From an uncultured archaeon (GTDB lineage Archaea > Aenigmatarchaeota > Aenigmatarchaeia > QMZP01 > JACQNV01), in contig CAYPFW010000001.1 of the NCBI GenBank assembly GCA_964410585.1, positions 447,814 through 511,813 on the forward strand: 64,000 nt of DNA. The letters are read 5' to 3'. Every line of letters begins with the position of its first letter. The first letter of the stretch is position 1. Below are positions 8,839 through 48,599 of the stretch, piece by piece. The notes beneath the pieces are model-generated. The model did not search any database and was not told the DNA's origin. It worked only from the letters and a program-made list of their open reading frames with translations. The translations under genes and the position numbers were made by a program.

Positions 8839-10265
8839 ATTTTCTTCACCATGTAGTCGCCTTCTAAATGGTAGCCGAGCTTCTCATAATATTTTCTGAC
8901 TCCTACACCAGAAATAACAACAATTTTGTCAAAGCCTAAATCCTTTGTTATCCTTTCAGCTTCTGCTAACAGCTTCCTGCCAAAACCTTTGTGCTGGAAG
9001 GTTGTTGTCCATGCCTCGTTTTCTTTTAATCCAGCTTCCAAACCAAAAACATGGAGCTCCCTTACAATTGTTGAAGTTGGTGTGATCTCAGGCCTAAAAT
9101 TTGGAACTTTTTCAATAGACGTCGAAGGTATCCTAAGCCTCAACAAGCCAATTATCAAATCGTTTTCAACATCATCAAAAGATAGGAAGATTTCCTTTCC
9201 ACCAGATGCTTCGTATTCTATTCTGTTCAATTTTATATTTTCCTCTTTTACATTTTTTCCTTTTAACAAACCATAACCAACTTCCCTGCATCTTATACAT
9301 TGACATTTCAAACCAAGTTCCTTCATCCTTTGTTTTGCAGAATCTCTTTGGTGACAGAATTTTGTCCCACCAACTATGTATTGAGCAGGAAGATCCCTCA
9401 TCACTCTTTGTATGCGCGCATACCTTGGCACAAGCGCCTTTGTCCTTGCCAAGATTTCAACAATTTCGTCTTCTGTGTATGGTTTGTATTTTCCTTCTTT
9501 GAGCCATTCTTCTAATTCTGTGCCCTCAACAACAACACAAGGATATATTTTCAATCCATCTGGCCTAAAGTTTGGATCAGAAAAAAGTTTTTCAAACTGT
9601 TTGACATCTTCTTCAACATTAGATCCTGGCAAATTGCACATATAGTGATAATAGATTTTGAAACCAGAATCTTTGAGCAAACGTGTCGCCTCTATAACAT
9701 CTTTTACAGTGTGTCCTCTTTTTGTAAGCTCATAGTTTTTGTCGTCTGCTATTTGCACACCTATTTCCACTCGCGTTGTCCCAAAGCTAAGCATCTCATC
9801 TATCTGGTGCTTTTTGCACCAATCTGGCCTTGTTTCTATACACAAACCAACACACCGATGTGTAGTTGTTTCATTTATTTTTTTGGCTTGTTCTAGACTT
9901 TCGGAAACAGTAAAATTCAAACCATCATATATCCCTTTGATAAATTCTGTCCTGTATGATTTTGGCGAGGCCATGAATGTGCCGCCCATTATAATGACTT
10001 CATTTTTTTCTGAAATATGTCCATTCTCTGTGAGTGTTTCTATCCTTCCTTGTATTTGCCCCTTAGAATCATAGTTTTGCCTAAGAGCTCTTAGGACAGT
10101 TGGCGATTTTGGCATGTAACTTTTTGGTGTTGGTATTGGCTTGTCATAGCCGCCTGGACAGTATACACATTCTCCAGGACAAGGAAGTGGTTTCGTCATT
10201 GCAGAGAGGATGGTAACACCTGAAATTGTCCTGACCTTTTTCTTAGGATGAACTGTTTTAAGCAT
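8835..10265 (-). CDS. elp3: Elp3-type radical SAM/GNAT tRNA wobble-uridine modification enzyme
   Basis: CPGECVYCPGG cluster motif, a radical SAM core and a C-terminal GNAT (QHKGFGRKLL). Start set at MLKTVHPKK (cat at 10263-10265). Confidence 0.9.
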   Translation of the reverse strand: MLKTVHPKKKVRTISGVTILSAMTKPLPCPGECVYCPGGYDKPIPTPKSYMPKSPTVLRALRQNYDSKGQIQGRIETLTENGHISEKNEVIIMGGTFMASPKSYRTEFIKGIYDGLNFTVSESLEQAKKINETTTHRCVGLCIETRPDWCKKHQIDEMLSFGTTRVEIGVQIADDKNYELTKRGHTVKDVIEATRLLKDSGFKIYYHYMCNLPGSNVEEDVKQFEKLFSDPNFRPDGLKIYPCVVVEGTELEEWLKEGKYKPYTEDEIVEILARTKALVPRYARIQRVMRDLPAQYIVGGTKFCHQRDSAKQRMKELGLKCQCIRCREVGYGLLKGKNVKEENIKLNRIEYEASGGKEIFLSFDDVENDLIIGLLRLRIPSTSIEKVPNFRPEITPTSTIVRELHVFGLEAGLKENEAWTTTFQHKGFGRKLLAEAERITKDLGFDKIVVISGVGVRKYYEKLGYHLEGDYMVKKI

Positions 10266-39933: not shown

Positions 39934-40193
39934 AGACTTCTAACTCTCCTTTTTAGTTTTATAGAAATATCTTACTAAGCCACAAGGCTCATATCGATTA
40001 TAGCGTAGAGAATATCTGCGCGCAAAAGCCAGAAGTTCTGGCATAGAACAAGTCTTACCAAAATTTCCAACTTTAGTTTCTATTAACTATATCAAAATAG
40101 TAACCAAGGGCTTATAAAGGTTATTCCTCTCTGTGCCCACAAAACAAGATTTCTGTAATTGTGCTCACAAAAATCAGAAAAATACTTTAACCA

Positions 40194-40323: not shown

Positions 40324-40893
40324 CTAAATCTTCCCAACCAAATCTAAGCCGGGTTTCAATGTTTTTTTTCCTGGTTCCCAGTTTGCTGGGCAGACAAAGC
40401 CTTTGTTTTCTCTGACAAATTTTGCAGCCTGAAGTTTTCTCAATAATTCTTTTGCACTTCTTCCAATACTATTATCATGAAGTTCAAAAGCTTTTAGAAT
40501 TCCGTCTGGATCAATTATAAAAGAACCTCTCAAAGACAAACCCTCTTCTTCAATATATGTTCCAAATTCCTTGCAAATATTTCCAGTTGGATCAGCAAGC
40601 ATTGGATATTTTATTTTTTTGATAGAAGGTGAGTTGTCGTGCCATGCTTTGTGAACAAAAACAGTGTCTGTGCTGACTGACATGATTTCTGCACCGAGCT
40701 TCTGGAATTCTGGATATAGGTCTGCTGCTTCTTCTAATTCTGTTGGACAAATGAAAGTGAAATCAGCCGGATAGAAAATTAAAACAACCCATTTTCCTCT
40801 AAAATCTGAAAGTTTCAAAACCTTTTCTTCTTCATTTACAAAAGCCTTTGCTTTAAAGTCTGGAACTGGGTGACCTATTTTTACCATACTCAA
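40324..40893 (-). CDS. 2-Cys peroxiredoxin (AhpC/TSA family)
   Basis: FYPADFTFICPTEL active-site motif and a C-terminal resolving Cys (GFVCPANW). Confidence 0.9.
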   Translation of the reverse strand: MSMVKIGHPVPDFKAKAFVNEEEKVLKLSDFRGKWVVLIFYPADFTFICPTELEEAADLYPEFQKLGAEIMSVSTDTVFVHKAWHDNSPSIKKIKYPMLADPTGNICKEFGTYIEEEGLSLRGSFIIDPDGILKAFELHDNSIGRSAKELLRKLQAAKFVRENKGFVCPANWEPGKKTLKPGLDLVGKI

Positions 40894-41070
40894 TTAGAAA
40901 TCGACACAACCGATTTCAATTCTCTAACCCCTTAATAGCTACATTTGCCTTTTACATAAAAGAAGTAGCCATAGTTTTATTGAAGTTTAGATTTAAATAT
41001 CTTTTTGGGTAATAAGGTTTTCCCATGGTAAGACACAGGCCCCTCTCAAGTCGTTCAGAGAAGACCAAAA

Positions 41071-41107
41071 TTGAAACTAAGTGTCTTAGTTTCTCGCGAA
41101 TACTTGG
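41071..41107 (+). repeat. Linker copy C0 (diverged)
   Basis: TTGAAACTAAGTGTCTTAGTTTCTCGCGAATACTTGG. Same layout and same GTGTC centre as C3. Confidence 0.55.
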
Positions 41108-41232
41108 AGCGATCGAGCCTTTGCAAATAGAATTGAAAGGCGAAGAAGTTTGAGAGCCCGAACTTGTTATCATTAACAATTTATTCAGACATTATTTAGG
41201 TGCCCGCAGTTATCTCGAAATATATTAGAATT

Positions 41233-41583
41233 TTATTCCACATATTCCCCACGAATTGCAATAACTTTAAACCTAATGGCCAAATCTTCAATAATATCTG
41301 CAGCACCTGATTTATCACACTTTGATGTTCCTAGAACCTCATAACCTCCACGAGACCCCCCTAACCTATCTATAAAATAATCTTGCATCTCCTTAAAGAA
41401 CTCTAGATATCCCTCGTTACAAATTGTAACTTCGCGACGCTCATGATCAATTGCTATTGCACAATCTATTCTTTCACCAGACAAATGAAAAAGAGTTCTT
41501 CGCAACCCATCAGAAACCGCATTTCTATATTGCCCTAGATTTTCAAATTCTACTATCTTTTGTCTTGTCATTTTTTCACCCAA
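41233..41583 (-). CDS. Cassette ORF a, hypothetical (116 aa)
   Basis: Flanked by inverted repeats TTTGAGAGCCC (41149-41159) / GGGCTCTCAAA (41647-41657) and AGGTGCCCGC / GCGGGCACCT. Confidence 0.55.
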   Translation of the reverse strand: MGEKMTRQKIVEFENLGQYRNAVSDGLRRTLFHLSGERIDCAIAIDHERREVTICNEGYLEFFKEMQDYFIDRLGGSRGGYEVLGTSKCDKSGAADIIEDLAIRFKVIAIRGEYVE

Positions 41584-41657
41584 TATAAAATGTAATTTTA
41601 AAGCATATAAGCTTGTGGATCTCGTGGGCGGGCACCTCGTTAGTGAGGGCTCTCAAA

Positions 41658-41711
41658 TTTCACTTAATGATCTTATGCTCCCACGATAGTGGTTCGAACG
41701 CAGTGAGAAAG
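41658..41711 (+). repeat. Linker copy C1 (left arm replaced)
   Basis: TTTCACTTAA-TGATC-TTATGCTCCCACGATAGTGGTTCGAACGCAGTGAGAAAG. Confidence 0.75.
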
Positions 41712-42095
41712 TCGAGATTGCAGTGCAAAAATAAAAACAAGTTTTTGGATTTAATTGTTAAACGGTGGGGGCGGGTTTGTAGTTCCAGTTCTTACTATAA
41801 CTACCAACTCTCCAAGGTTCACAATCTCTTCTGCCAACAATTTCCCACCACATACCAGGGAAAAGGATAGTCGCTATAAAAGTATCTCCTATCTGCTCCA
41901 TGCGTGTATCAGAATAAGTCCTGATATCTTTTCTTAACTCATCAAAAAGATAACCCACTTTAGTTCTGTATACTTTTCCTGTATCTTCAGATACCCATTT
42001 TGGTTTAAACATACAAATAATTAAAGTGTAAATAATTTAAGCTTAACCCCGCCCCCTCGCCAGTCGTCTAGGAATCCAAAAACCTGCGATCTCGA
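41712..42095 (-). mobile_element. TIR-bounded small-ORF element b (384 bp)
   Basis: TCGAGATTGCAG..TTTTTGGATT..GGGGGCGGG at the left. The right end is the inverse: CCCCGCCCCC..AATCCAAAAACCTGCGATCTCGA. Confidence 0.7.
41758..42012 (-). CDS. Cassette ORF b, hypothetical (84 aa), paralog of ORF e
   Basis: MFKPKWVSEDTGKVYRTKVGYLF.... The C-terminal ...KPAPTV is encoded by the GC-rich TIR box. Confidence 0.6.
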   Translation of the reverse strand: MFKPKWVSEDTGKVYRTKVGYLFDELRKDIRTYSDTRMEQIGDTFIATILFPGMWWEIVGRRDCEPWRVGSYSKNWNYKPAPTV

Positions 42096-42130
42096 TTGAG
42101 CATAATGATCTTATGCTCCCACGATAGTGG
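42096..42130 (+). repeat. Linker copy C2 (3'-truncated)
   Basis: TTGAGCATAA-TGATC-TTATGCTCCCACGATAGTGG. Confidence 0.8.
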
Positions 42131-42136
42131 CGAGAC

Positions 42137-42433
42137 TTACTTTGGCTGATCAGAAGTCGAAGAGTCGACGGCGGAGGCTCTTGAAACAATATATTCTTCT
42201 GTAAAATTTTCGAGTTCGGTAAGAACTTCTGGGTCAGATCCTATATAAGCAAATAATCTGTGTGCAAGCATATCATAACTACCAACTTCTTTACCTTCTC
42301 TATCATAAATTAAAGCACCATCAATCCCTGGAATATCTAAAACTCTGAAGCCTCTTCTCTGTATTGATTCTGCAAAATCTTTAAAAGATTCGTCCCTTCC
42401 TAATTGATATTCTCCAATTTTAATTTGTTTCAT
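42137..42433 (-). CDS. Cassette ORF c, hypothetical (98 aa)
   Basis: Bracketed by TCGACGGCGGAGGCTC (42165-42180) / GAGCCGAAGCCGTCGA (42478-42493), 13/16 complementary. Confidence 0.55.
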   Translation of the reverse strand: MKQIKIGEYQLGRDESFKDFAESIQRRGFRVLDIPGIDGALIYDREGKEVGSYDMLAHRLFAYIGSDPEVLTELENFTEEYIVSRASAVDSSTSDQPK

Positions 42434-42493
42434 AAGCTATGAATTGACACCAAGTTTTAAATATACCAAACACAGAAGAGCCGAAGCCGTCGA

Positions 42494-42563
42494 TTGAGCA
42501 TAAGTGTCTTATGCTCCCACGATAGTGGTTCGAACTTGGGAAAATGATATAGAAGTGAGAAAG
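42494..42563 (+). repeat. Linker copy C3 (complete, centre GTGTC)
   Basis: TTGAGCATAA-GTGTC-TTATGCTCCCACGATAGTGGTTCGAACTTGGGAAAATGATATAGAAGTGAGAAAG. Confidence 0.85.
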
Positions 42564-42581
42564 TCGCATGTGGAGGGGCTA

Positions 42582-42836
42582 TTAACCATATTTTATTTTA
42601 TGAAACAGAACAGTTAATGAAAAAATAAATGTAACTATATTTATGCTTATCAAGGGCAACGAATTAATCAATACACCATAAATCAACCACAATAACTGAC
42701 TTATCGTAAGGATAAGATACATGTGAAAGTTAATATCGCGAGTCAACTTGGTTCTCCACACTTGAACTACTTGAGGGAAAATAGCAACAATTGACAAAAT
42801 GGTGGCAATATACCCGAGAAGGTCAACATAAATCAT
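42582..42836 (-). CDS. Cassette ORF d: SemiSWEET / PQ-loop 3-TM transporter (84 aa)
   Basis: Three TM segments with FPQVVQVWRTK and LWLIYG motifs. Bracketed by TCGCATGTGGAGGGGCTA (42564) / TAGCCCCGGAACATGCGA (42888). Confidence 0.7.
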   Translation of the reverse strand: MIYVDLLGYIATILSIVAIFPQVVQVWRTKLTRDINFHMYLILTISQLLWLIYGVLINSLPLISINIVTFIFSLTVLFHKIKYG

Positions 42837-42888
42837 ACAATTAATTGAATTCGCATATGTAAATATTTTTTAGCCCCGGAACATGCGA

Positions 42889-42957
42889 TTGAGCATAATG
42901 ATCTTATGCTCCCACGATAGTGGTTCGAACTTGGAAAATAATATAGAAGTGAGAAAG
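42889..42957 (+). repeat. Linker copy C4 (complete)
   Basis: TTGAGCATAA-TGATC-TTATGCTCCCACGATAGTGGTTCGAACTTGGAAAATAATATAGAAGTGAGAAAG. Confidence 0.85.
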
Positions 42958-43413
42958 TCGAGCTCGCAGTTAACAAATAGAAACAAGCTTTTGGATTAAT
43001 CTGTCAAATCAAGAGAGGGGGCGGGGATTGTTTTTGGTTCATCGATTTTTCTCAAATCATAGAAAGATCTAAGATAAAAATAAGGTACTAAAGCAGGAGT
43101 AACGACTATTCCAGAAATACCAATGCCTAAGCTAAGCAACGCATCTACAGGATCTTCTTCCCAGTTTTCTTTTGATATATCAAGATCTCTATATATACTA
43201 TCAACAGCTTTTGAAAAAGACCAACCTAAACGGGTTCTATAAACCAGTCCATACTCCTGACTCAAATGATTAATTGTAGAACGTGTAAGTTCCTCACTTT
43301 CTGAAACAGCTGTCTTGGGAATAAACATATAACCAAAATATAACTGCAAACAATTTAAGCTTAATCCCGCCCCCTCGTAAGTTGCCTAGTAATCCAAAAA
43401 CCTGCGAGCTCGA
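42958..43413 (-). mobile_element. TIR-bounded small-ORF element e (456 bp), homologous to element b
   Basis: TCGAGCTCGCAG..CTTTTGGATTA..GAGGGGGCGGGGATT at the left. The right end is the inverse: AATCCCGCCCCCTCG..TAATCCAAAAACCTGCGAGCTCGA. Confidence 0.7.
42996..43328 (-). CDS. Cassette ORF e, hypothetical (110 aa), paralog of ORF b
   Basis: Start set at MFIPKTAVSESEEL...LVYRTRLGWSF, matching the ORF b N-terminus. The C-terminal ...IPAPSLDLTD is encoded by the TIR box. Confidence 0.6.
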   Translation of the reverse strand: MFIPKTAVSESEELTRSTINHLSQEYGLVYRTRLGWSFSKAVDSIYRDLDISKENWEEDPVDALLSLGIGISGIVVTPALVPYFYLRSFYDLRKIDEPKTIPAPSLDLTD

Positions 43414-43436
43414 TTGAGCATAATCAGTGTTAAGTG
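43414..43436 (+). repeat. Linker copy C5 (right arm replaced)
   Basis: TTGAGCATAA-TCAGTG-TTAAGTG. The new right arm is the reverse complement of the C1 left arm CACTTAA. Confidence 0.7.
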
Positions 43437-43515
43437 ACTCTGTTAGGAGCGAGGCTTAACAGGTTATTAAGTAGCCGAAGAGTCGAAAGAAAGTAAACAA
43501 CTAATAGGGGCGGAA

Positions 43516-43884
43516 TTAGTCAGATCGTCTAGGCATAGATATAATGGTTGGTTTACCCATATCATCCCAAGCTTCCCAGGCTTCTCGAGAAACACCTGTT
43601 TGTCTAACGTCATCCCCAGTAACTACATGTGGAGGTTGAGCGTCTTCTGGAAGATTTTGCACATATCTATCAAAAACCCTACTAACAGCATAAAGTGTAA
43701 ATCCAGGATTTCCCCCAGTAAGTTCTTCCAAAGCGGCATAACCAGAATCATCAAATCTAATAAAACTACCAGGCTCTTGACCCATCGCTTTGTGTGCAAA
43801 ATCTAATCTACGCTCAACGACTGGTCTAACCATAGAACGGTTGGTAGGTATTTCGATGTAACGCATCTCAATTGGCTCTGACAT
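43516..43884 (-). CDS. Cassette ORF f, hypothetical (122 aa)
   Basis: Bracketed by TCGAAAGAAAG...GGGGCGGAATT (43483-) and AATTACGCCC...CTTTCTTTCGA (-43970). The composition looks GC-richer than neighbouring genes. Confidence 0.55.
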   Translation of the reverse strand: MSEPIEMRYIEIPTNRSMVRPVVERRLDFAHKAMGQEPGSFIRFDDSGYAALEELTGGNPGFTLYAVSRVFDRYVQNLPEDAQPPHVVTGDDVRQTGVSREAWEAWDDMGKPTIISMPRRSD

Positions 43885-43970
43885 ATAATCACCAAATCAA
43901 CCATTAAATATTGAAAGTAAACTATTTAAGTTATAAATTACGCCCTTCACGGTTAACCGCTTTCTTTCGA

Positions 43971-43985
43971 TTTCACTTAAGAGAC
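43971..43985 (+). repeat. Linker remnant C6
   Basis: TTTCACTTAAGAGAC shares TTTCACTTAA with C1. Confidence 0.45.
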
Positions 43986-44093
43986 TTTATACGAACGTTG
44001 ATAAACTAGACTGATTTTGGGCTTTATTTGTTGTTTTGAGATTGTTTTGGATATATTGATTCTGACGCTTCTGGAAATCTATAGACGCTAAAT

Positions 44094-44420
44094 TTAGCCA
44101 TATCCAAATCTTCTCTCATAATTTTTGTGATCAAACCACTCAAGTAAGATAGCCATTATTTTAATTTCGTCTTTTGCTATTGTGTATATTAGTCTCCAAG
44201 CGTTTGGCAAATCATATTTCCACAAATTGTCTATTTTGTATTTCTTGATGTATTCTTTCGGCCACAAATCTTGAGGAATCTTTATTCCACAATTTGGATT
44301 CTTTTTCAAATCATCGGTTGCTCTTTCAAGAAATTTGTAAAGCTGAGGATCTTCAGATTCTGCCTTTTCGTACTCCTCCTTTGTTTTCTCATCTATAAAA
44401 CCAACAAACACATTTGTCAT
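44094..44420 (-). CDS. RelE/YoeB-like type II toxin
   Basis: 108 aa with ...NLWKYDLPNAWRLIYTI...ILLEWFDHKNYERRFGY. 4-nt overlap with the upstream small ORF. Confidence 0.6.
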   Translation of the reverse strand: MTNVFVGFIDEKTKEEYEKAESEDPQLYKFLERATDDLKKNPNCGIKIPQDLWPKEYIKKYKIDNLWKYDLPNAWRLIYTIAKDEIKIMAILLEWFDHKNYERRFGYG

Positions 44421-44680
44421 TTTAATATCAATCCTTTTTGTGTCACTTTCCTAATTAGTTCTGGGTTCCATATCCATACTATCTTTTCATCTTTGCCTAT
44501 CGTAATTTTTCCCAGTTCTTCCAGATAATCAATTATCATGGAAAATGTTTGGTACATAACTTGCTTGGGGAGCGCTTTCCACAACTCTGTTTTCGTTGGG
44601 TAAAAACCCAAATTTTTTATAGTGTCCTCTACCATCAATACCGTGTCCAGTCTTGGATAGTGCAAAATATTTTGGCTCAT
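44417..44680 (-). CDS. Small DNA-binding/antitoxin-like protein (paralog of 23176-23439)
   Basis: MSQNILHYPRLDTVLMVEDTIKN.... It sits upstream of and overlaps the toxin. The palindromic promoter copy is at 44689-44707. Confidence 0.6.
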   Translation of the reverse strand: MSQNILHYPRLDTVLMVEDTIKNLGFYPTKTELWKALPKQVMYQTFSMIIDYLEELGKITIGKDEKIVWIWNPELIRKVTQKGLILK

Positions 44681-44711
44681 GTAATTATATAAGTTTATAT
44701 AACTTATAAAG

Positions 44712-45599
44712 CTATCTGTTGTCTCCATATATCCCATCCAGAGGACTCCTAACTTTTATCAAAGTTGGTGCAGCTGTGTGTAGATAAATTTGTGTGGTTT
44801 CTGGGCTTTTGTGGCCGAGCAGGCCTTGGACTTCTGAAACAGAGCAACCGTTTTCAATCAAGTGGGTTGCGAAGGAATGTCTTAAAGTGTGAGGATGAAC
44901 CTTCTTTCCAATTTTGGATTTTTTTGAGGCCTTTTTCAGGATTTGCTGGATGCTGCGGACGCTGTATTTGGTTTTTTGGTTTGTAAGAAAGAGTGGGTTT
45001 TCTGGGAGAAGACCTTCATCTTGGATAAGTTTTCGGATTGCTGATTTCAGGCTTTCTGCGATAATAAACAATCTGTCTTTATTTCCTTTGCCTCCTCTAA
45101 CCCAGCCATAGTTGTTTTCAAGATTCAATTCCTTTACAGTTAAATTTACAAGTTCAGAAACCCGCATACCAGAAGAGTATAGGAATTCTATCATCAGCTT
45201 GTGTTTTTGATTTTGTACTGAGGAAAATAATTTTTGAATTTCATCTTTGGTCAAAACAACTGGAATTTTCTCTGGAACTTTGGAGTAGCTTATATCTATC
45301 CAAATTCTTTTGTCAAGGACTTCTTCAAACAAAAATCTGATCGCCATGTGGTAGACGTTCATTGTGCTGCCTGATTTTTCTTTTTCAGAGAGATTTTCAA
45401 GAAATTCGCGGACATCTTTTTTGCCTATTTTATCCAGACTCTTTCTAGAGAATTTTAGAAATTGATCGATACAATAAATATAGGTCTCAGATGTTCTGGG
45501 ACTATAGTTTCTTCTTCTACATTCTTTTTCGAGAGAAGATTTCCAATCGATAGGTGTGTAGGACATACGATTTATGTATATTTTTAATTCTTTTGGCAT
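44712..45599 (-). CDS. Tyrosine site-specific recombinase (Xer/integron-integrase-like)
   Basis: SAM-like N-terminal domain. Catalytic positions are R (GMRVSEL), HTLRHSF, LLGHKS and IYLH. C-terminal IKVRSPLD resembles the IntI1 C-terminus GVRSPLD. Confidence 0.85.
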   Translation of the reverse strand: MPKELKIYINRMSYTPIDWKSSLEKECRRRNYSPRTSETYIYCIDQFLKFSRKSLDKIGKKDVREFLENLSEKEKSGSTMNVYHMAIRFLFEEVLDKRIWIDISYSKVPEKIPVVLTKDEIQKLFSSVQNQKHKLMIEFLYSSGMRVSELVNLTVKELNLENNYGWVRGGKGNKDRLFIIAESLKSAIRKLIQDEGLLPENPLFLTNQKTKYSVRSIQQILKKASKKSKIGKKVHPHTLRHSFATHLIENGCSVSEVQGLLGHKSPETTQIYLHTAAPTLIKVRSPLDGIYGDNR

Positions 45600-45624: not shown

Positions 45625-45831
45625 TCAAGCTGCTTGTAGAGAAGAAATTGTGTTTTTAGGGACTACTTTGCTTGCTGAAAGGATTTCTATTCCAATTAAT
45701 TTTTTGTTTGAGTCAAAATCGAGGACAATATTTTCGTTCATAGACACTGTGCTCTTTACTTCGCCTTTGGAGATTTTGTCCTTTAGGTAAATGTAGGCTG
45801 CATCTGCTTCTTTGTCGTATGTTATTTTCAT
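45625..45831 (-). CDS. DUF2283-family small protein (antitoxin-like partner)
   Basis: ITYDKEADAAYIYL...LIGIEILSAS pattern. Confidence 0.65.
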   Translation of the reverse strand: MKITYDKEADAAYIYLKDKISKGEVKSTVSMNENIVLDFDSNKKLIGIEILSASKVVPKNTISSLQAA

Positions 45832-45835
45832 ATCT

Positions 45836-46051
45836 CTAGTAGACTGTTATTATAATTATAGTGTCTTTTTCTTCCTTATAAACAACCTCTATAGTGCGGT
45901 TGCTAATTTTTTTGGTAGCTGTGTTTCTATCTTTGAACGATGATATTGAATAATCATAAGAATATATGGTTTGTTCAACTTGTTCTTTTGATATGTCACG
46001 CTCTTCCATTCTCTGTTTAGCATGGTTTGTGTACACTATTCTTTTTGGCAT
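45836..46051 (-). CDS. DUF4258-family toxin-like protein
   Basis: YTNHAKQRMEERDISKEQVEQTI signature. Confidence 0.65.
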   Translation of the reverse strand: MPKRIVYTNHAKQRMEERDISKEQVEQTIYSYDYSISSFKDRNTATKKISNRTIEVVYKEEKDTIIIITVY

Positions 46052-46085: not shown

Positions 46086-46430
46086 TCAGTTAGCATAGTC
46101 TTCTTGAGAAAGAACAACGCTCAATTTTATTGGTCCGTCTTCTATTGGTTTTAGCCTCATTTTCAGAATTTCGTTGAAAAAGAAGCTAAGAGAATTCGAA
46201 ATAAGTTGTGGGAAAGCCCCTGATTTGTTGGAGAGCTCTTTTTCCAAATATTCTTGCAAATCGCTTTCTGTTATTTCTTCCAACGGTTTGTCTATCTTAA
46301 AAACAAACTTTTTAATGTTGAAAAGATGTGTTGCTATTGTTTCTTCTGGCAGATTCTTGAGCCTCATTTCCCTGTATGCAACAAATATTGGGTCAATATC
46401 CATTTCCATAATACTCCTCCTATTCATCAC
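46086..46430 (-). CDS. Stand-alone integrase N-terminal SAM-like (core-binding) domain protein
   Basis: Helical pattern ...EETIATHLFNIKKFVFKI...ITESDLQEYLEK...SLSFFFNEIL without any catalytic domain. Confidence 0.5.
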   Translation of the reverse strand: MMNRRSIMEMDIDPIFVAYREMRLKNLPEETIATHLFNIKKFVFKIDKPLEEITESDLQEYLEKELSNKSGAFPQLISNSLSFFFNEILKMRLKPIEDGPIKLSVVLSQEDYAN

Positions 46431-46758
46431 TCATTGCAATCTCCCTGAAAAGGAGATGTATAGCGTCTCTTGCAATTTTTTTATTTGATTGTATTTGGTT
46501 TAGGTAATCGTTAAGGTCTTCCTCGCAGGCTGCTGATGGGTCCTTTTCCAAAAAGTTTAGGAACCCGTATATGTGGAACCAGTAGTCTTTTATTTCCTCT
46601 TTTGAGAGGCTTCTTCTCTCCATTTCTAGAGAAAGTTTAAACTCTAATGTCCTTGGATAAAAATCCAAAGCTGTGGAAAATTCTAAGAAGGCTCCTTGGA
46701 CAATTTGTTTTTCCAATTCATCGGCCTTTGGAGGGCAAGATTGTAACATAATGATCAC
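46420..46758 (-). CDS. Second stand-alone integrase SAM-like domain protein
   Basis: ...YWFHIYGFLNFLEKDPSAACEEDLNDYLNQI...IHLLFREI. An S-repeat box lies directly upstream. Confidence 0.45.
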   Translation of the reverse strand: MIIMLQSCPPKADELEKQIVQGAFLEFSTALDFYPRTLEFKLSLEMERRSLSKEEIKDYWFHIYGFLNFLEKDPSAACEEDLNDYLNQIQSNKKIARDAIHLLFREIAMSDE

Positions 46759-47579: not shown

Positions 47580-48599
47580 TTAAATAGTATAAATCCTTCC
47601 CCTACCATCTCCAACAAGTTTGATCAGCTTATAGTGTTCCAATTTATCTAAATAATTCCTTGCTGTCCTGTCAACTATTTTTTCCAGTTTATTTTTTTCA
47701 CATAACTCTTCAAATTTTTTGTAGAAGTCTTGAGGCGCTATTTTTCCTGAAGCACAAATAATTTCATACATTAGTTTTTGATGCTTGTTTAGAGAGGATA
47801 TTAGATCATTTCTTCCAACGATTTTGGCCTTGTGTATGAATTTATCTACAAAATCAACTGGGATTTTTTTTAAATCTTTTCTCTCTGCCTCTTCTGCAAC
47901 TATTCTTAAAGTATCTATAGCAAACCTCGAATCTCCCTCTGAAACAGAGGCTATTTTTTCAATCAATTCTTGGGAAGCCGCGTGTGGGAGGAGACCATAT
48001 TCTGCTCTGGTTTTTAGTATGTCTATTATCTCATACTCTTTGTAGTGCGGAAATTCTATGTAGTTTATTGAGGCTAACCTACTCCTTATTCTTTCCTCGA
48101 AACCAAAGAGCGCTGTCTCTTTATTTGAAATGAAAATTAAACAAGCACCCAGTGAAAGAAATTCATAGATAATTCTGTCAGATTCTATCTGGTCCACCTC
48201 ATCTAAAATTATCACACAATTCTTGCCTTTTATTTTTGCTTTAACTTTTTCCAAAAGCTCGTCTGTTGGTATGCCTTTCCTGTGGATGAATGTTTGACCA
48301 AATTCATGAAGAATATTGTAAAGTATTTGGAAATCAGAAGGTGTTGTCCAACAGTTTATGTAAGAAGATGTTACAGGAATGTGAGATTTCAGTTCCTCAA
48401 TAATAAATTTTGAGAGGCAGGTTTTTCCTGTTCCAGGTGGCCCGTACAAGAAAACATTCCTTGCCTGCTTCCCATTTACTATTGGAGAAAGGTCGTCGCG
48501 TATAGTGGATATTTGAGAATCTCTATGAATAATTTTTGATGGAATGAATTGCTCTGTTAGAACGCGAAGATCTCGGATGATTGTATTATCTGTATACAT
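47580..48599 (-). CDS. cdc6: Orc1/Cdc6 replication initiator
   Basis: AAA+ fold (LYGPPGTGKT, VIILDEVD), an initiator-specific region and a C-terminal winged helix. Confidence 0.9.
   Translation of the reverse strand: MYTDNTIIRDLRVLTEQFIPSKIIHRDSQISTIRDDLSPIVNGKQARNVFLYGPPGTGKTCLSKFIIEELKSHIPVTSSYINCWTTPSDFQILYNILHEFGQTFIHRKGIPTDELLEKVKAKIKGKNCVIILDEVDQIESDRIIYEFLSLGACLIFISNKETALFGFEERIRSRLASINYIEFPHYKEYEIIDILKTRAEYGLLPHAASQELIEKIASVSEGDSRFAIDTLRIVAEEAERKDLKKIPVDFVDKFIHKAKIVGRNDLISSLNKHQKLMYEIICASGKIAPQDFYKKFEELCEKNKLEKIVDRTARNYLDKLEHYKLIKLVGDGRGRIYTI

Follow-up and report, generated by a model that had tools for sequence, protein, structure and literature searches.

The window analysed here, a 64-kb stretch of an archaeal chromosome (part of a contig of ~600 kb; G+C content 34-40%) encoding PriL, the RLI ATPase, Elp3, Orc1/Cdc6 and a FlaI-type ATPase, contains six small open reading frames (ORFs), all on the minus strand, within 3 kb (41040-44078). 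A repeated linker of ~69 nt lies between them, and this 3-kb stretch ends at an attI-like region near the gene of a XerA-like tyrosine recombinase, whose nearest relatives are found in metagenome-assembled genomes (MAGs) of Aenigmarchaeota and other DPANN archaea. An earlier note on this DNA had singled out two of the six units, elements b and e, as small non-autonomous elements bounded by terminal inverted repeats. We analysed the whole 3-kb stretch, which probably represents a cassette array built by site-specific recombination (Table 1).

Six units between repeated linkers

Elements b and e lie where the earlier note had placed them. Their imperfect terminal inverted repeats have three blocks in common (TCGAG.T.GCAG, TTTTGGATT and GGGGGCGGG), and all four occurrences of GGGGGCGGG in the window are in b and e arms. 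The note was also right that both units interrupt the linker at the same position, between ...GTGAGAAAG and TTGAGCATAA..., that the block GGGGGCGGG(G/A)TTAAGCTTAAATT is found upstream of the ATG in both, and that the final codons fall within the GC-rich box of the repeat (KPAPTV in b, IPAPSLDLTD in e). DNA identity between the two elements amounts to 86% across 88 nt at one of their ends and 82% across 61 nt at the opposite one. Their ORFs had been taken for paralogs, which our comparison did not bear out: BLASTP gave E = 1.2, and in shuffle tests the full-length likeness was significant only through the N-terminal ~23 residues and the PAP motif at the C-terminus, with the central parts at chance (local p = 0.68, global p = 0.60). 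The ORF ends that are alike are those encoded by the common cassette termini. A third cassette with ends of the b/e type, on metagenome contig Ga0114945_10168684 (L001), holds a different ORF whose C-terminus, NPAPLDLTD, is likewise encoded by the arm; the cassette ends are therefore homologous, the cargo not demonstrably so.

The inverted repeats and their position in the linker are thus real features, but they are not peculiar to b and e, since all six units (a to f) have inverted repeats of their own abutting the same linker. The terminal repeat of unit a, for example, is GAAGTTTGAGAGCCC + GGTGCCCGC. Repeat arms directly abut the linker in all six units. They are matched within each unit and differ between units, a pattern typical of base pairing and not of ends bound by one common protein. 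The distance between the 3′ repeat box and the end arm (defined below) is nearly constant, 31-55 nt and mostly 45-53 nt, and the box is followed by CTCTTCG or CTTTCTC.

Two hairpins open the linker: a perfect one, GAGCATAA-TGATC-TTATGCTC, and then CCAC-GATA-GTGG (hairpin 2), the stem of which covaries in relatives (TCCC/GGGA in locus L112). The first hairpin has the geometry of a recombination core, an inverted pair of 8-nt arms around a 5-6-nt spacer. Seven such sites are present, all of one polarity: end arm, spacer, start arm beginning with TTA, and AA. On the ORF strand, cassettes B to E start with TTATGCTC and end with GAGCATAA, and cassette F has a matched pair of another type. At three junctions in the window (41660, 43416 and 43973) the two arms are not complementary. 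From the arm pairs of F and of B to E, together with these mismatched junctions, it follows that the hairpin halves travel with the cassette and that junctions between unlike neighbours are hybrids, as expected of products of strand exchange between spacer and TTA. The crossover is fixed at this boundary of spacer and TTA; we infer that it lies after ...TAA on the plus strand, just 5′ of TTA on the ORF strand, and cassettes A to F are delimited by these points. Elements b and e are two of the six cassettes. As the earlier note had it, they are small cargo units that encode no enzyme themselves and almost certainly rely on one acting in trans, but their boundary lies within the linker hairpin and not, as in a transposon, at the inverted repeats.

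Table 1. Coordinates in the window of the cassette array, its recombination sites and the adjoining recombinase gene (IR, inverted repeat; arm matches given as start arm against end arm)
Feature	Coordinates	Strand	Details
Distal boundary	41040-41080	-	start arm TTAGTTTC-AA, then degenerate b/e-type 5′ module (TTTTGGTCTTCTCTGAACGACTTGAGAGGGG); common to L002 and L114
Cassette A	41081-41667	-	IR TTTGAGAGCCC + GGTGCCCGC; arms TTAAGTGA / GAAACTAA, 4/8; ORF 41233-41571/41583
Cassette B	41668-42105	-	holds element b; arms TTATGCTC / GAGCATAA, 8/8
Element b	41712-42095	-	384 bp from IR to IR; arms 41712-41778 and 42045-42095; ORF b 41758-42012, 84 aa, orphan
Cassette C	42106-42503	-	arms 8/8; IR TCGACGGC-3 nt-GGCTCTT; ORF 42137-42433
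Cassette D	42504-42898	-	arms 8/8; IR TCGCATGT-3 nt-GGGGCTA; ORF 42582-42836
Cassette E	42899-43423	-	holds element e; arms TTATGCTC / GAGCATAA, 8/8
Element e	42958-43413	-	456 bp; arms 42958-43026 and 43363-43413; ORF e 42996-43328, 110 aa from ATG, orphan, one hydrophobic segment
Cassette F	43424-43980	-	start arm TTAAGTGA, end arm TCACTTAA, 8/8; IR TCGAAAGAAAG + GGGCG.AATT; ORF 43516-43884
Recombination core (dif-like)	42891-42911	+	GAGCATAA-TGATC-TTATGCTC
Equivalent core sites	41073-41093, 41660-41680, 42098-42118, 42496-42516, 43416-43437, 43973-43993		
Hairpin 2	42912-42923	+	CCAC GATA GTGG, abuts core; also 41681-41692, 42119-42130, 42517-42528
Junction	41660		TCACTTAA-TGATC-TTATGCTC
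Junction	43416		GAGCATAA-TCAGTG-TTAAGTGA
Junction	43973		TCACTTAA-GAGAC-TTTATACG
attI-like region	43981-44078	-	~100-nt conserved block with CCAAAAYAAC-type repeats; ends TCGTATAAA GTCTC at first cassette start
XerA-like tyrosine recombinase, candidate cassette integrase	44712-45599	-	

The annotated frame scores best by host codon usage for all six ORFs. The ORF of cassette D encodes a PQ-loop/MtN3 half-transporter; ORFs a, b, c, e and f gave no match in Pfam or PADLOC, and ORFs b and e found none but themselves among 5.8 billion proteins. No recombinase is encoded in the cassettes. Single-sequence AlphaFold2 models of b and e (predicted local distance difference test scores 48.9 and 41.0) were too poor for fold comparison. 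A look-up of exact products returned for ORF e only short Logan contigs with the same order (toxin, f, e), ending in the linker, and no record for ORFs b, c and d. The reading frame of cassette C continues through the 3′ repeat arm into the linker. Within the 5′ arm, a TATA-like element precedes each ATG by ~20-30 nt, which suggests that each cassette has its own promoter and a leaderless transcript.

At the far end of the array, the distal start arm TTAGTTTC(AATT) at 41073-41080 has an 11/12 complementary partner, AATAGAAACTAA (ORF strand), at 40073-40080, ~250 nt beyond the stop codon of a peroxiredoxin gene (40324-40893). This gene may be an old terminal cassette, although an 11/12 arm match could be due to chance (about 1%, by a rough estimate).

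A conserved insertion point and covarying arms in related loci

Relatives of the recombinase were collected from GTDB genomes and metagenome assemblies. In loci L002, L109-111, L112 and L114/115, with recombinases 73-81% identical to that of the window, the surroundings are syntenic: orc1/cdc6, a histidine-kinase-like ATPase, small ORFs with SAM-like domains, toxin-antitoxin genes and the recombinase gene. The attI-like block is homologous over ~100 nt in five genomes (the window, L002, L112, L109 and L114), and in all five it ends in ...TCG(T/C)ATAAA G(T/C)CT(C/G), directly followed by a cassette. The insertion point is conserved, and what follows it varies. The first cassette starts with TTAAGTGA in the window and L109, TTATGCTC in L002, TTAGTTTC in L112 and TTAATTGA in L114. 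L002 shares its proximal block and its distal flank (TTAGTTTC-AA-TTTTGGTCTTCTCT...) with the window but has a single cassette between them, as against six. At least five cassettes are present in L114, among them HicAB and three GNAT acetyltransferases, and L109 has a methyltransferase cassette. The cargo of the relatives (GNAT acetyltransferases, HicAB, a methyltransferase and orphans) is typical cassette cargo.

A homologous array was also found in L008, a Woesearchaeota MAG whose recombinase is 53% identical to that of the window. It is located 4 kb from the integrase gene and has the same linker motifs (TTGAGTATAA..., and CGAAGAG before the repeat box), with multi-block inverted repeats around each ORF. 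Further copies and a near-empty site, on which the earlier note had made its proposal depend, thus exist elsewhere (L001, L002, L112, L109, L114 and L008).

The matching of the arms was evaluated on 11 complete cassettes from five genomes, representing five arm types, with the cassette of L001 as a twelfth. In 11 of the 12 (10 of the 11 complete cassettes, plus L001), start and end arm are perfect reverse complements over all 8 nt, whereas non-cognate pairs match at a mean of 4.5/8 positions and neighbouring arms of unlike type at 3-6/8. We then aligned the 12 junctions as they would be in a circle and tested three helices, formed by the proximal repeat box, hairpin 2 and the arms. In this alignment 91.2% of cells are paired, against 62.4% in shuffles and 28-40% in slid controls, and 15 of 20 pairs show compensatory changes. 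The covariation score, 0.739 against 0.208 in shuffles, was reached by none of 500 shuffles. The stems are thus specific to each cassette and covary. When circular junctions were simulated for the six cassettes of the window, they folded much better than shuffles (z-scores from -3.6 to -8.7), into a common structure made of the GC box, an internal loop, the proximal box and a branched tip with two hairpins.

Searches by sequence retrieved few arrays. The exact linker core had no match in GTDB genomes, none in viral contigs and a single one in metagenomes (L001). Of two further viral scans, one was empty and the other gave 25 chance 15-mer matches, none confirmed by nhmmer. When 81 loci with integrase homologues were searched by nhmmer with linker probes, only L001, L002 and L008 were found, and later also L112 and L114. 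A generic detector of matched arms could not single out new arrays, because AT-rich DNA gave too much background, 3-10 matches per shuffled window.

Several observations concern the arrays themselves. L114 contains a 207-nt cassette (9508-9714) with perfectly matched arms (TTAATTGA / TCAATTAA) and no ORF. The 3′ linker of cassette A (..GCTCCAAGTATTCGCGA) resembles that of cassette 1b of L114 (..GCTCCAAGTATTCGCGG), with a compensatory change in a small stem, and this likeness suggests linker exchange. In L001, a gene for an IS110-family transposase (495-1261; DEDD_Tnp_IS110, E = 3.5e-24) starts 78 nt after the boundary ...TCGA-TTGAGCATAA|TCCGT, and this insertion sequence seems to sit exactly at the inferred crossover of a b/e-type cassette. 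Finally, assemblies of L082, L083, L110-L113 and L115-L118 stop ~0.1-1.7 kb after the integrase gene or inside the linker, which suggests that repeated linkers and variable arrays break assemblies. Arrays may therefore be under-represented in MAGs.

The recombinase and its proposed action

The recombinase gene is intact, with recognisable catalytic motifs; its product contains MRVSEL, KGNKDR, HPHTLRH and LLGH...TTQIY. It passes the XerA model NF040815 (229.8 bits for a cut-off of 220) and remains below the cut-off of TIGR02249 (201.9, cut-off 265). Solved XerA structures align with it in a single stretch (5hxy, E = 6e-41; 4a8e, E = 4e-37). The insertion specific to IntI is absent: the alignment with IntI4 / VchIntIA (2a3v) falls into two parts, residues 190-216 of the query standing against residues 179-246 of IntI4, with ~40 residues missing. 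The gene is co-directional with the array in the window, and it is divergent from the array only in L008.

We consider it likely that 41040-44078 is a cassette array in the chromosome of an Aenigmarchaeota-like DPANN archaeon, and that site-specific recombination assembled it at the attI-like site beside the XerA-type gene. As far as can be judged from sequence, the system would be an integron-like one with a XerA-type recombinase and split-hairpin sites, present in at least two DPANN lineages. On the ORF strand, each cassette begins with a TTAnnnnn start arm and AA, after which one arm of the inverted repeat follows (proximal box, short unpaired spacer, GC-rich box). Next come a TATA-like promoter, the ORF, and the GC-rich box, spacer and proximal box of the other arm. 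The cassette ends with a CTYTYY motif, ~46 nt including hairpin 2, an nnnnnTAA end arm and the 5-6-nt spacer. Each cassette could be transcribed from its own promoter.

The adjoining XerA-like recombinase would be the enzyme, acting at the attI-like site, with strand exchange taking place between spacer and TTA. In an excised circle, the repeat stem, hairpin 2 and the arm hairpin should form one imperfect palindrome of ~100-200 nt, the size of an attC site. Integration would cut this element at its tip, where integrons cut at the base, and its halves would therefore bracket the gene. Classical two-strand exchange requires identical central regions, and is unlikely here because partner sites share only TTA/TAA and have spacers of 5 or 6 nt. 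The substrate is probably a folded single strand, exchanged on one strand and completed by replication, because only TTA/TAA is conserved, the arms covary, and partner spacers differ both in sequence and in length. One-strand exchange of a folded substrate is how integron attC sites recombine, according to a previous study (PMC2727003).

Several points weigh against the proposed cassette array. The recombinase is 60-80% identical in hundreds of proteins across DPANN, a degree of conservation more in keeping with a housekeeping XerA than with a dedicated integrase. About six related platforms were retrieved in all, and most loci with integrase homologues have no array recognisable by the probes used. 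Cassette A is the only one with unmatched arms (TTAAGTGA / GAAACTAA, 4/8), the asymmetry of G·T wobble pairs indicated no consistent folding strand, and the role of the inverted repeats in recombination is putative. Movement has no direct evidence in the form of circular-junction or empty-site reads, or of an identical cassette in two contexts.

The most serious alternative, which we find unlikely but by no means negligible, is that the recombinase is simply the XerA that serves the cell in housekeeping and the "attI" a present or former chromosomal dif site, at which minimal integrative mobile elements exploiting Xer (IMEX) have stacked in tandem. A dedicated integron-like platform would then not exist. 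Elements of the CTX and TLC types accumulate in tandem at dif in Vibrio. The result with the XerA equivalog model, the XerA proteins as best solved relatives and the strong conservation across DPANN all fit this possibility. So does the geometry of the core, two inverted arms around a 5-6-nt central region, and archaeal dif sites have an 11-6-11 layout of 28 bp (PMC2958812). Moreover, one start arm in L114, TTTATATT, is nearly complementary to the attI arm CGTATAAA, as if it were the displaced half of a palindromic dif. The array has further features in common with Xer/dif and IMEX: the enzyme family, tandem accumulation at one site, and a plausible one-strand exchange on a folded single strand, as known for CTX phage. 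However, the recombinase gene is linked to the site in every locus, whereas xerA and dif are unlinked in Thermococcales (PMC2958812). The locus is beside orc1/cdc6 and not at an obvious terminus. In addition, seven sites with variable, covarying 8-nt arms stand in place of the one conserved 28-bp dif that serves chromosome dimer resolution in the termination region, and such arms are far too variable for a sequence-specific dif. The units are single-gene cassettes of 0.2-0.8 kb, and not phages or islands. This alternative and the proposed cassette array differ only in the status of the enzyme, the cassette mechanism being the same in both.

A second alternative is that the inverted repeats act at the RNA level, as stems that process or stabilise mRNA (in the manner of bulge-helix-bulge or RNase sites) or as transcriptional insulators, and have no part in recombination. 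The stems do enclose each ORF and fold well as single strands, and a pyrimidine-rich tract follows the 3′ arm. Nevertheless, the repeats have a fixed position relative to the recombination arms and the ORFs can be on either strand: those of the window, L002, L112 and L109 are sense, those of L114_1b and L008 antisense. That the repeats hold their position regardless of ORF strand argues for a role in recombination rather than in mRNA. The TATA-like elements lie inside the 5′ arm, so that a leaderless mRNA would be devoid of that arm. No bulge-helix-bulge geometry (3-nt bulge, 4-bp helix, 3-nt bulge) was seen in the stems. Rfam (gathering thresholds) and tRNA/tmRNA scans of the whole window were empty, on which ground a linker resembling tRNA or a known structured RNA was also dropped. 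We regard a purely RNA-level function as quite improbable.

Still less probable is that b and e are non-autonomous transposons of the miniature inverted-repeat type (MITEs), carrying cargo, using the repeated linker as target and mobilised by a transposase encoded elsewhere. Short units with long terminal inverted repeats and no enzyme of their own are typical of MITEs, b, e, L001 and the distal unit of L002 have common end modules around different ORFs, and an IS110-family transposase gene adjoins such a cassette in L001. However, the repeats differ among the six cassettes and covary within each, which would defeat recognition by sequence on the part of any one transposase. The flanks, GAGAAAG and TTGAGC, do not form a target-site duplication. 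On either side of a cassette, the half-linkers are matched to each other (TTAAGTGA...TCACTTAA in cassette F) and therefore belong to the cassette, so that the mobile boundary lies outside the repeats. The b/e repeat blocks occur nowhere else in the window, which contains no matching transposase gene either. Variable repeats, absence of duplication and matched half-linkers together led us to exclude MITEs.

Least probable of all is a canonical integron or CALIN (a cluster of attC sites without integron integrase), which would account for the tyrosine recombinase, the attI-like site, the variable array of small ORFs and a crossover just before TT, recalling that of integrons between G and TTRRRY, and would agree with the CALINs listed in two Aenigmatarchaeota MAGs by Ghaly et al. 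on contigs QNAB01000166.1 and JAFCEM010000048.1, but which is contradicted by the missing IntI-specific insertion, the TIGR02249 score, the lack of any RYYYAAC...GTTRRRY pair in the array (consensus expression RYYYAAC...(35-130 nt)...GTTRRRY, both strands of 40901-44200) and a palindrome split around the ORF and not placed 3′ of it.

The neighbourhood of the recombinase gene shows some further features. Just upstream of it, two stand-alone minus-strand ORFs (46086-46430 and 46420-46758) encode nothing beyond the SAM-like (core-binding) domain found at the N-terminus of tyrosine recombinases. In L082 and L114 the integrase gene is likewise preceded by small ORFs of this sort, with weak or faint Phage_int_SAM_4 matches, and in L109 and L112 small ORFs at the corresponding position have no Pfam match on record. 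The stand-alone SAM-like ORFs may be accessory DNA-binding factors of the system. A DUF4258/DUF2283 pair is also found upstream (45625-46051). The stretch between integrase and attI is variable, with a ParE/YoeB-like toxin and its partner in the window (44094-44737), MazE/PemK in L109 (8917-9521), a Fic fragment in L114 (8891-9379) and nothing in L002 and L112. Outside archaea, the nearest relatives of the recombinase (30-40% identity; L011-L062) come from Saprospiraceae, Opitutaceae, Puniceicoccaceae, other Verrucomicrobia and Sedimentisphaerales.

The Orc1/Cdc6 gene (47580-48599) is ~2 kb from the integrase gene, an arrangement kept in relatives, and across the window the cumulative GC skew is lowest at 42-44 kb. 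A replication origin may lie beside the cassette platform.

Relation to integrons and to Xer-dependent systems

The proposed array resembles integrons in several respects. In both, the gene of a tyrosine recombinase adjoins a conserved insertion site, and the small ORFs lined up beyond this site are mostly orphans and vary between relatives; cassettes number one in L002 and six in the window. The recombination sites are conserved in structure, as covarying stems, and not in sequence, and at the crossover nothing is invariant but a TT(A)/(T)AA triplet. The recombination element contains the end of some ORFs. An IS110-family element seems to be inserted at one site, in L001, which recalls the IS1111-attC group of insertion sequences that target integron attC sites.

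There are also clear differences. The enzyme of the array is XerA-like and lacks the IntI insertion, R″/R′ consensus boxes are absent, and the crossover falls in the apical hairpin, so that the split palindrome brackets the gene. Integron cassettes are mostly promoterless and expressed from Pc, with intI divergent from the array, whereas the cassettes described here apparently have promoters of their own, to judge from the TATA-like elements, with the integrase gene co-directional in this clade and the ORFs in either orientation to the site. For the integrons reported in archaea, Ghaly et al. 2022 (PMC9668308) describe a canonical type, IntI domain and folded attC sites included, and this description sets them apart from the array.

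The pdif modules of Acinetobacter plasmids were also considered. These one- or two-gene modules, often with toxin-antitoxin genes, are bounded by Xer-type sites alternating in orientation. The array is likewise a string of small one- or two-gene modules bounded by Xer-type sites, often with toxin-antitoxin genes. However, its seven core sites share one polarity, which excludes pdif modules, and its inverted repeats are extra cassette-specific sequences and not Xer sites.

We tentatively propose, as a possibility that falls somewhat short of an even chance, that DPANN archaea (Aenigmarchaeota and Woesearchaeota) have an undescribed Xer-based counterpart of the integron, in which a XerA-type enzyme without IntI domain captures single genes at an attI-like site beside orc1/cdc6, each enclosed by a covarying split hairpin. 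A literature search returned no description of a Xer-type cassette array in DPANN; a prior description elsewhere is possible. Arrays of this kind would probably be missed by integron finders based on attC.

Integrons are the textbook gene-capture device of Bacteria, and their origin from Xer-like recombinases, like the way in which cassettes are generated, is still an open question. Both matters could be approached by comparison with a platform on which a XerA-type enzyme works unmodified, at sites that follow the logic of integrons in a different topology. If our proposal is true, either the integron principle was invented independently in this platform or a relative of the transition from Xer to IntI has survived, and the making of cassettes could be studied in a second and simpler system. 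The platform would also provide a mechanism for rapid change of gene content in DPANN archaea, organisms with tiny genomes that depend on hosts and whose accessory genes are mostly orphans.

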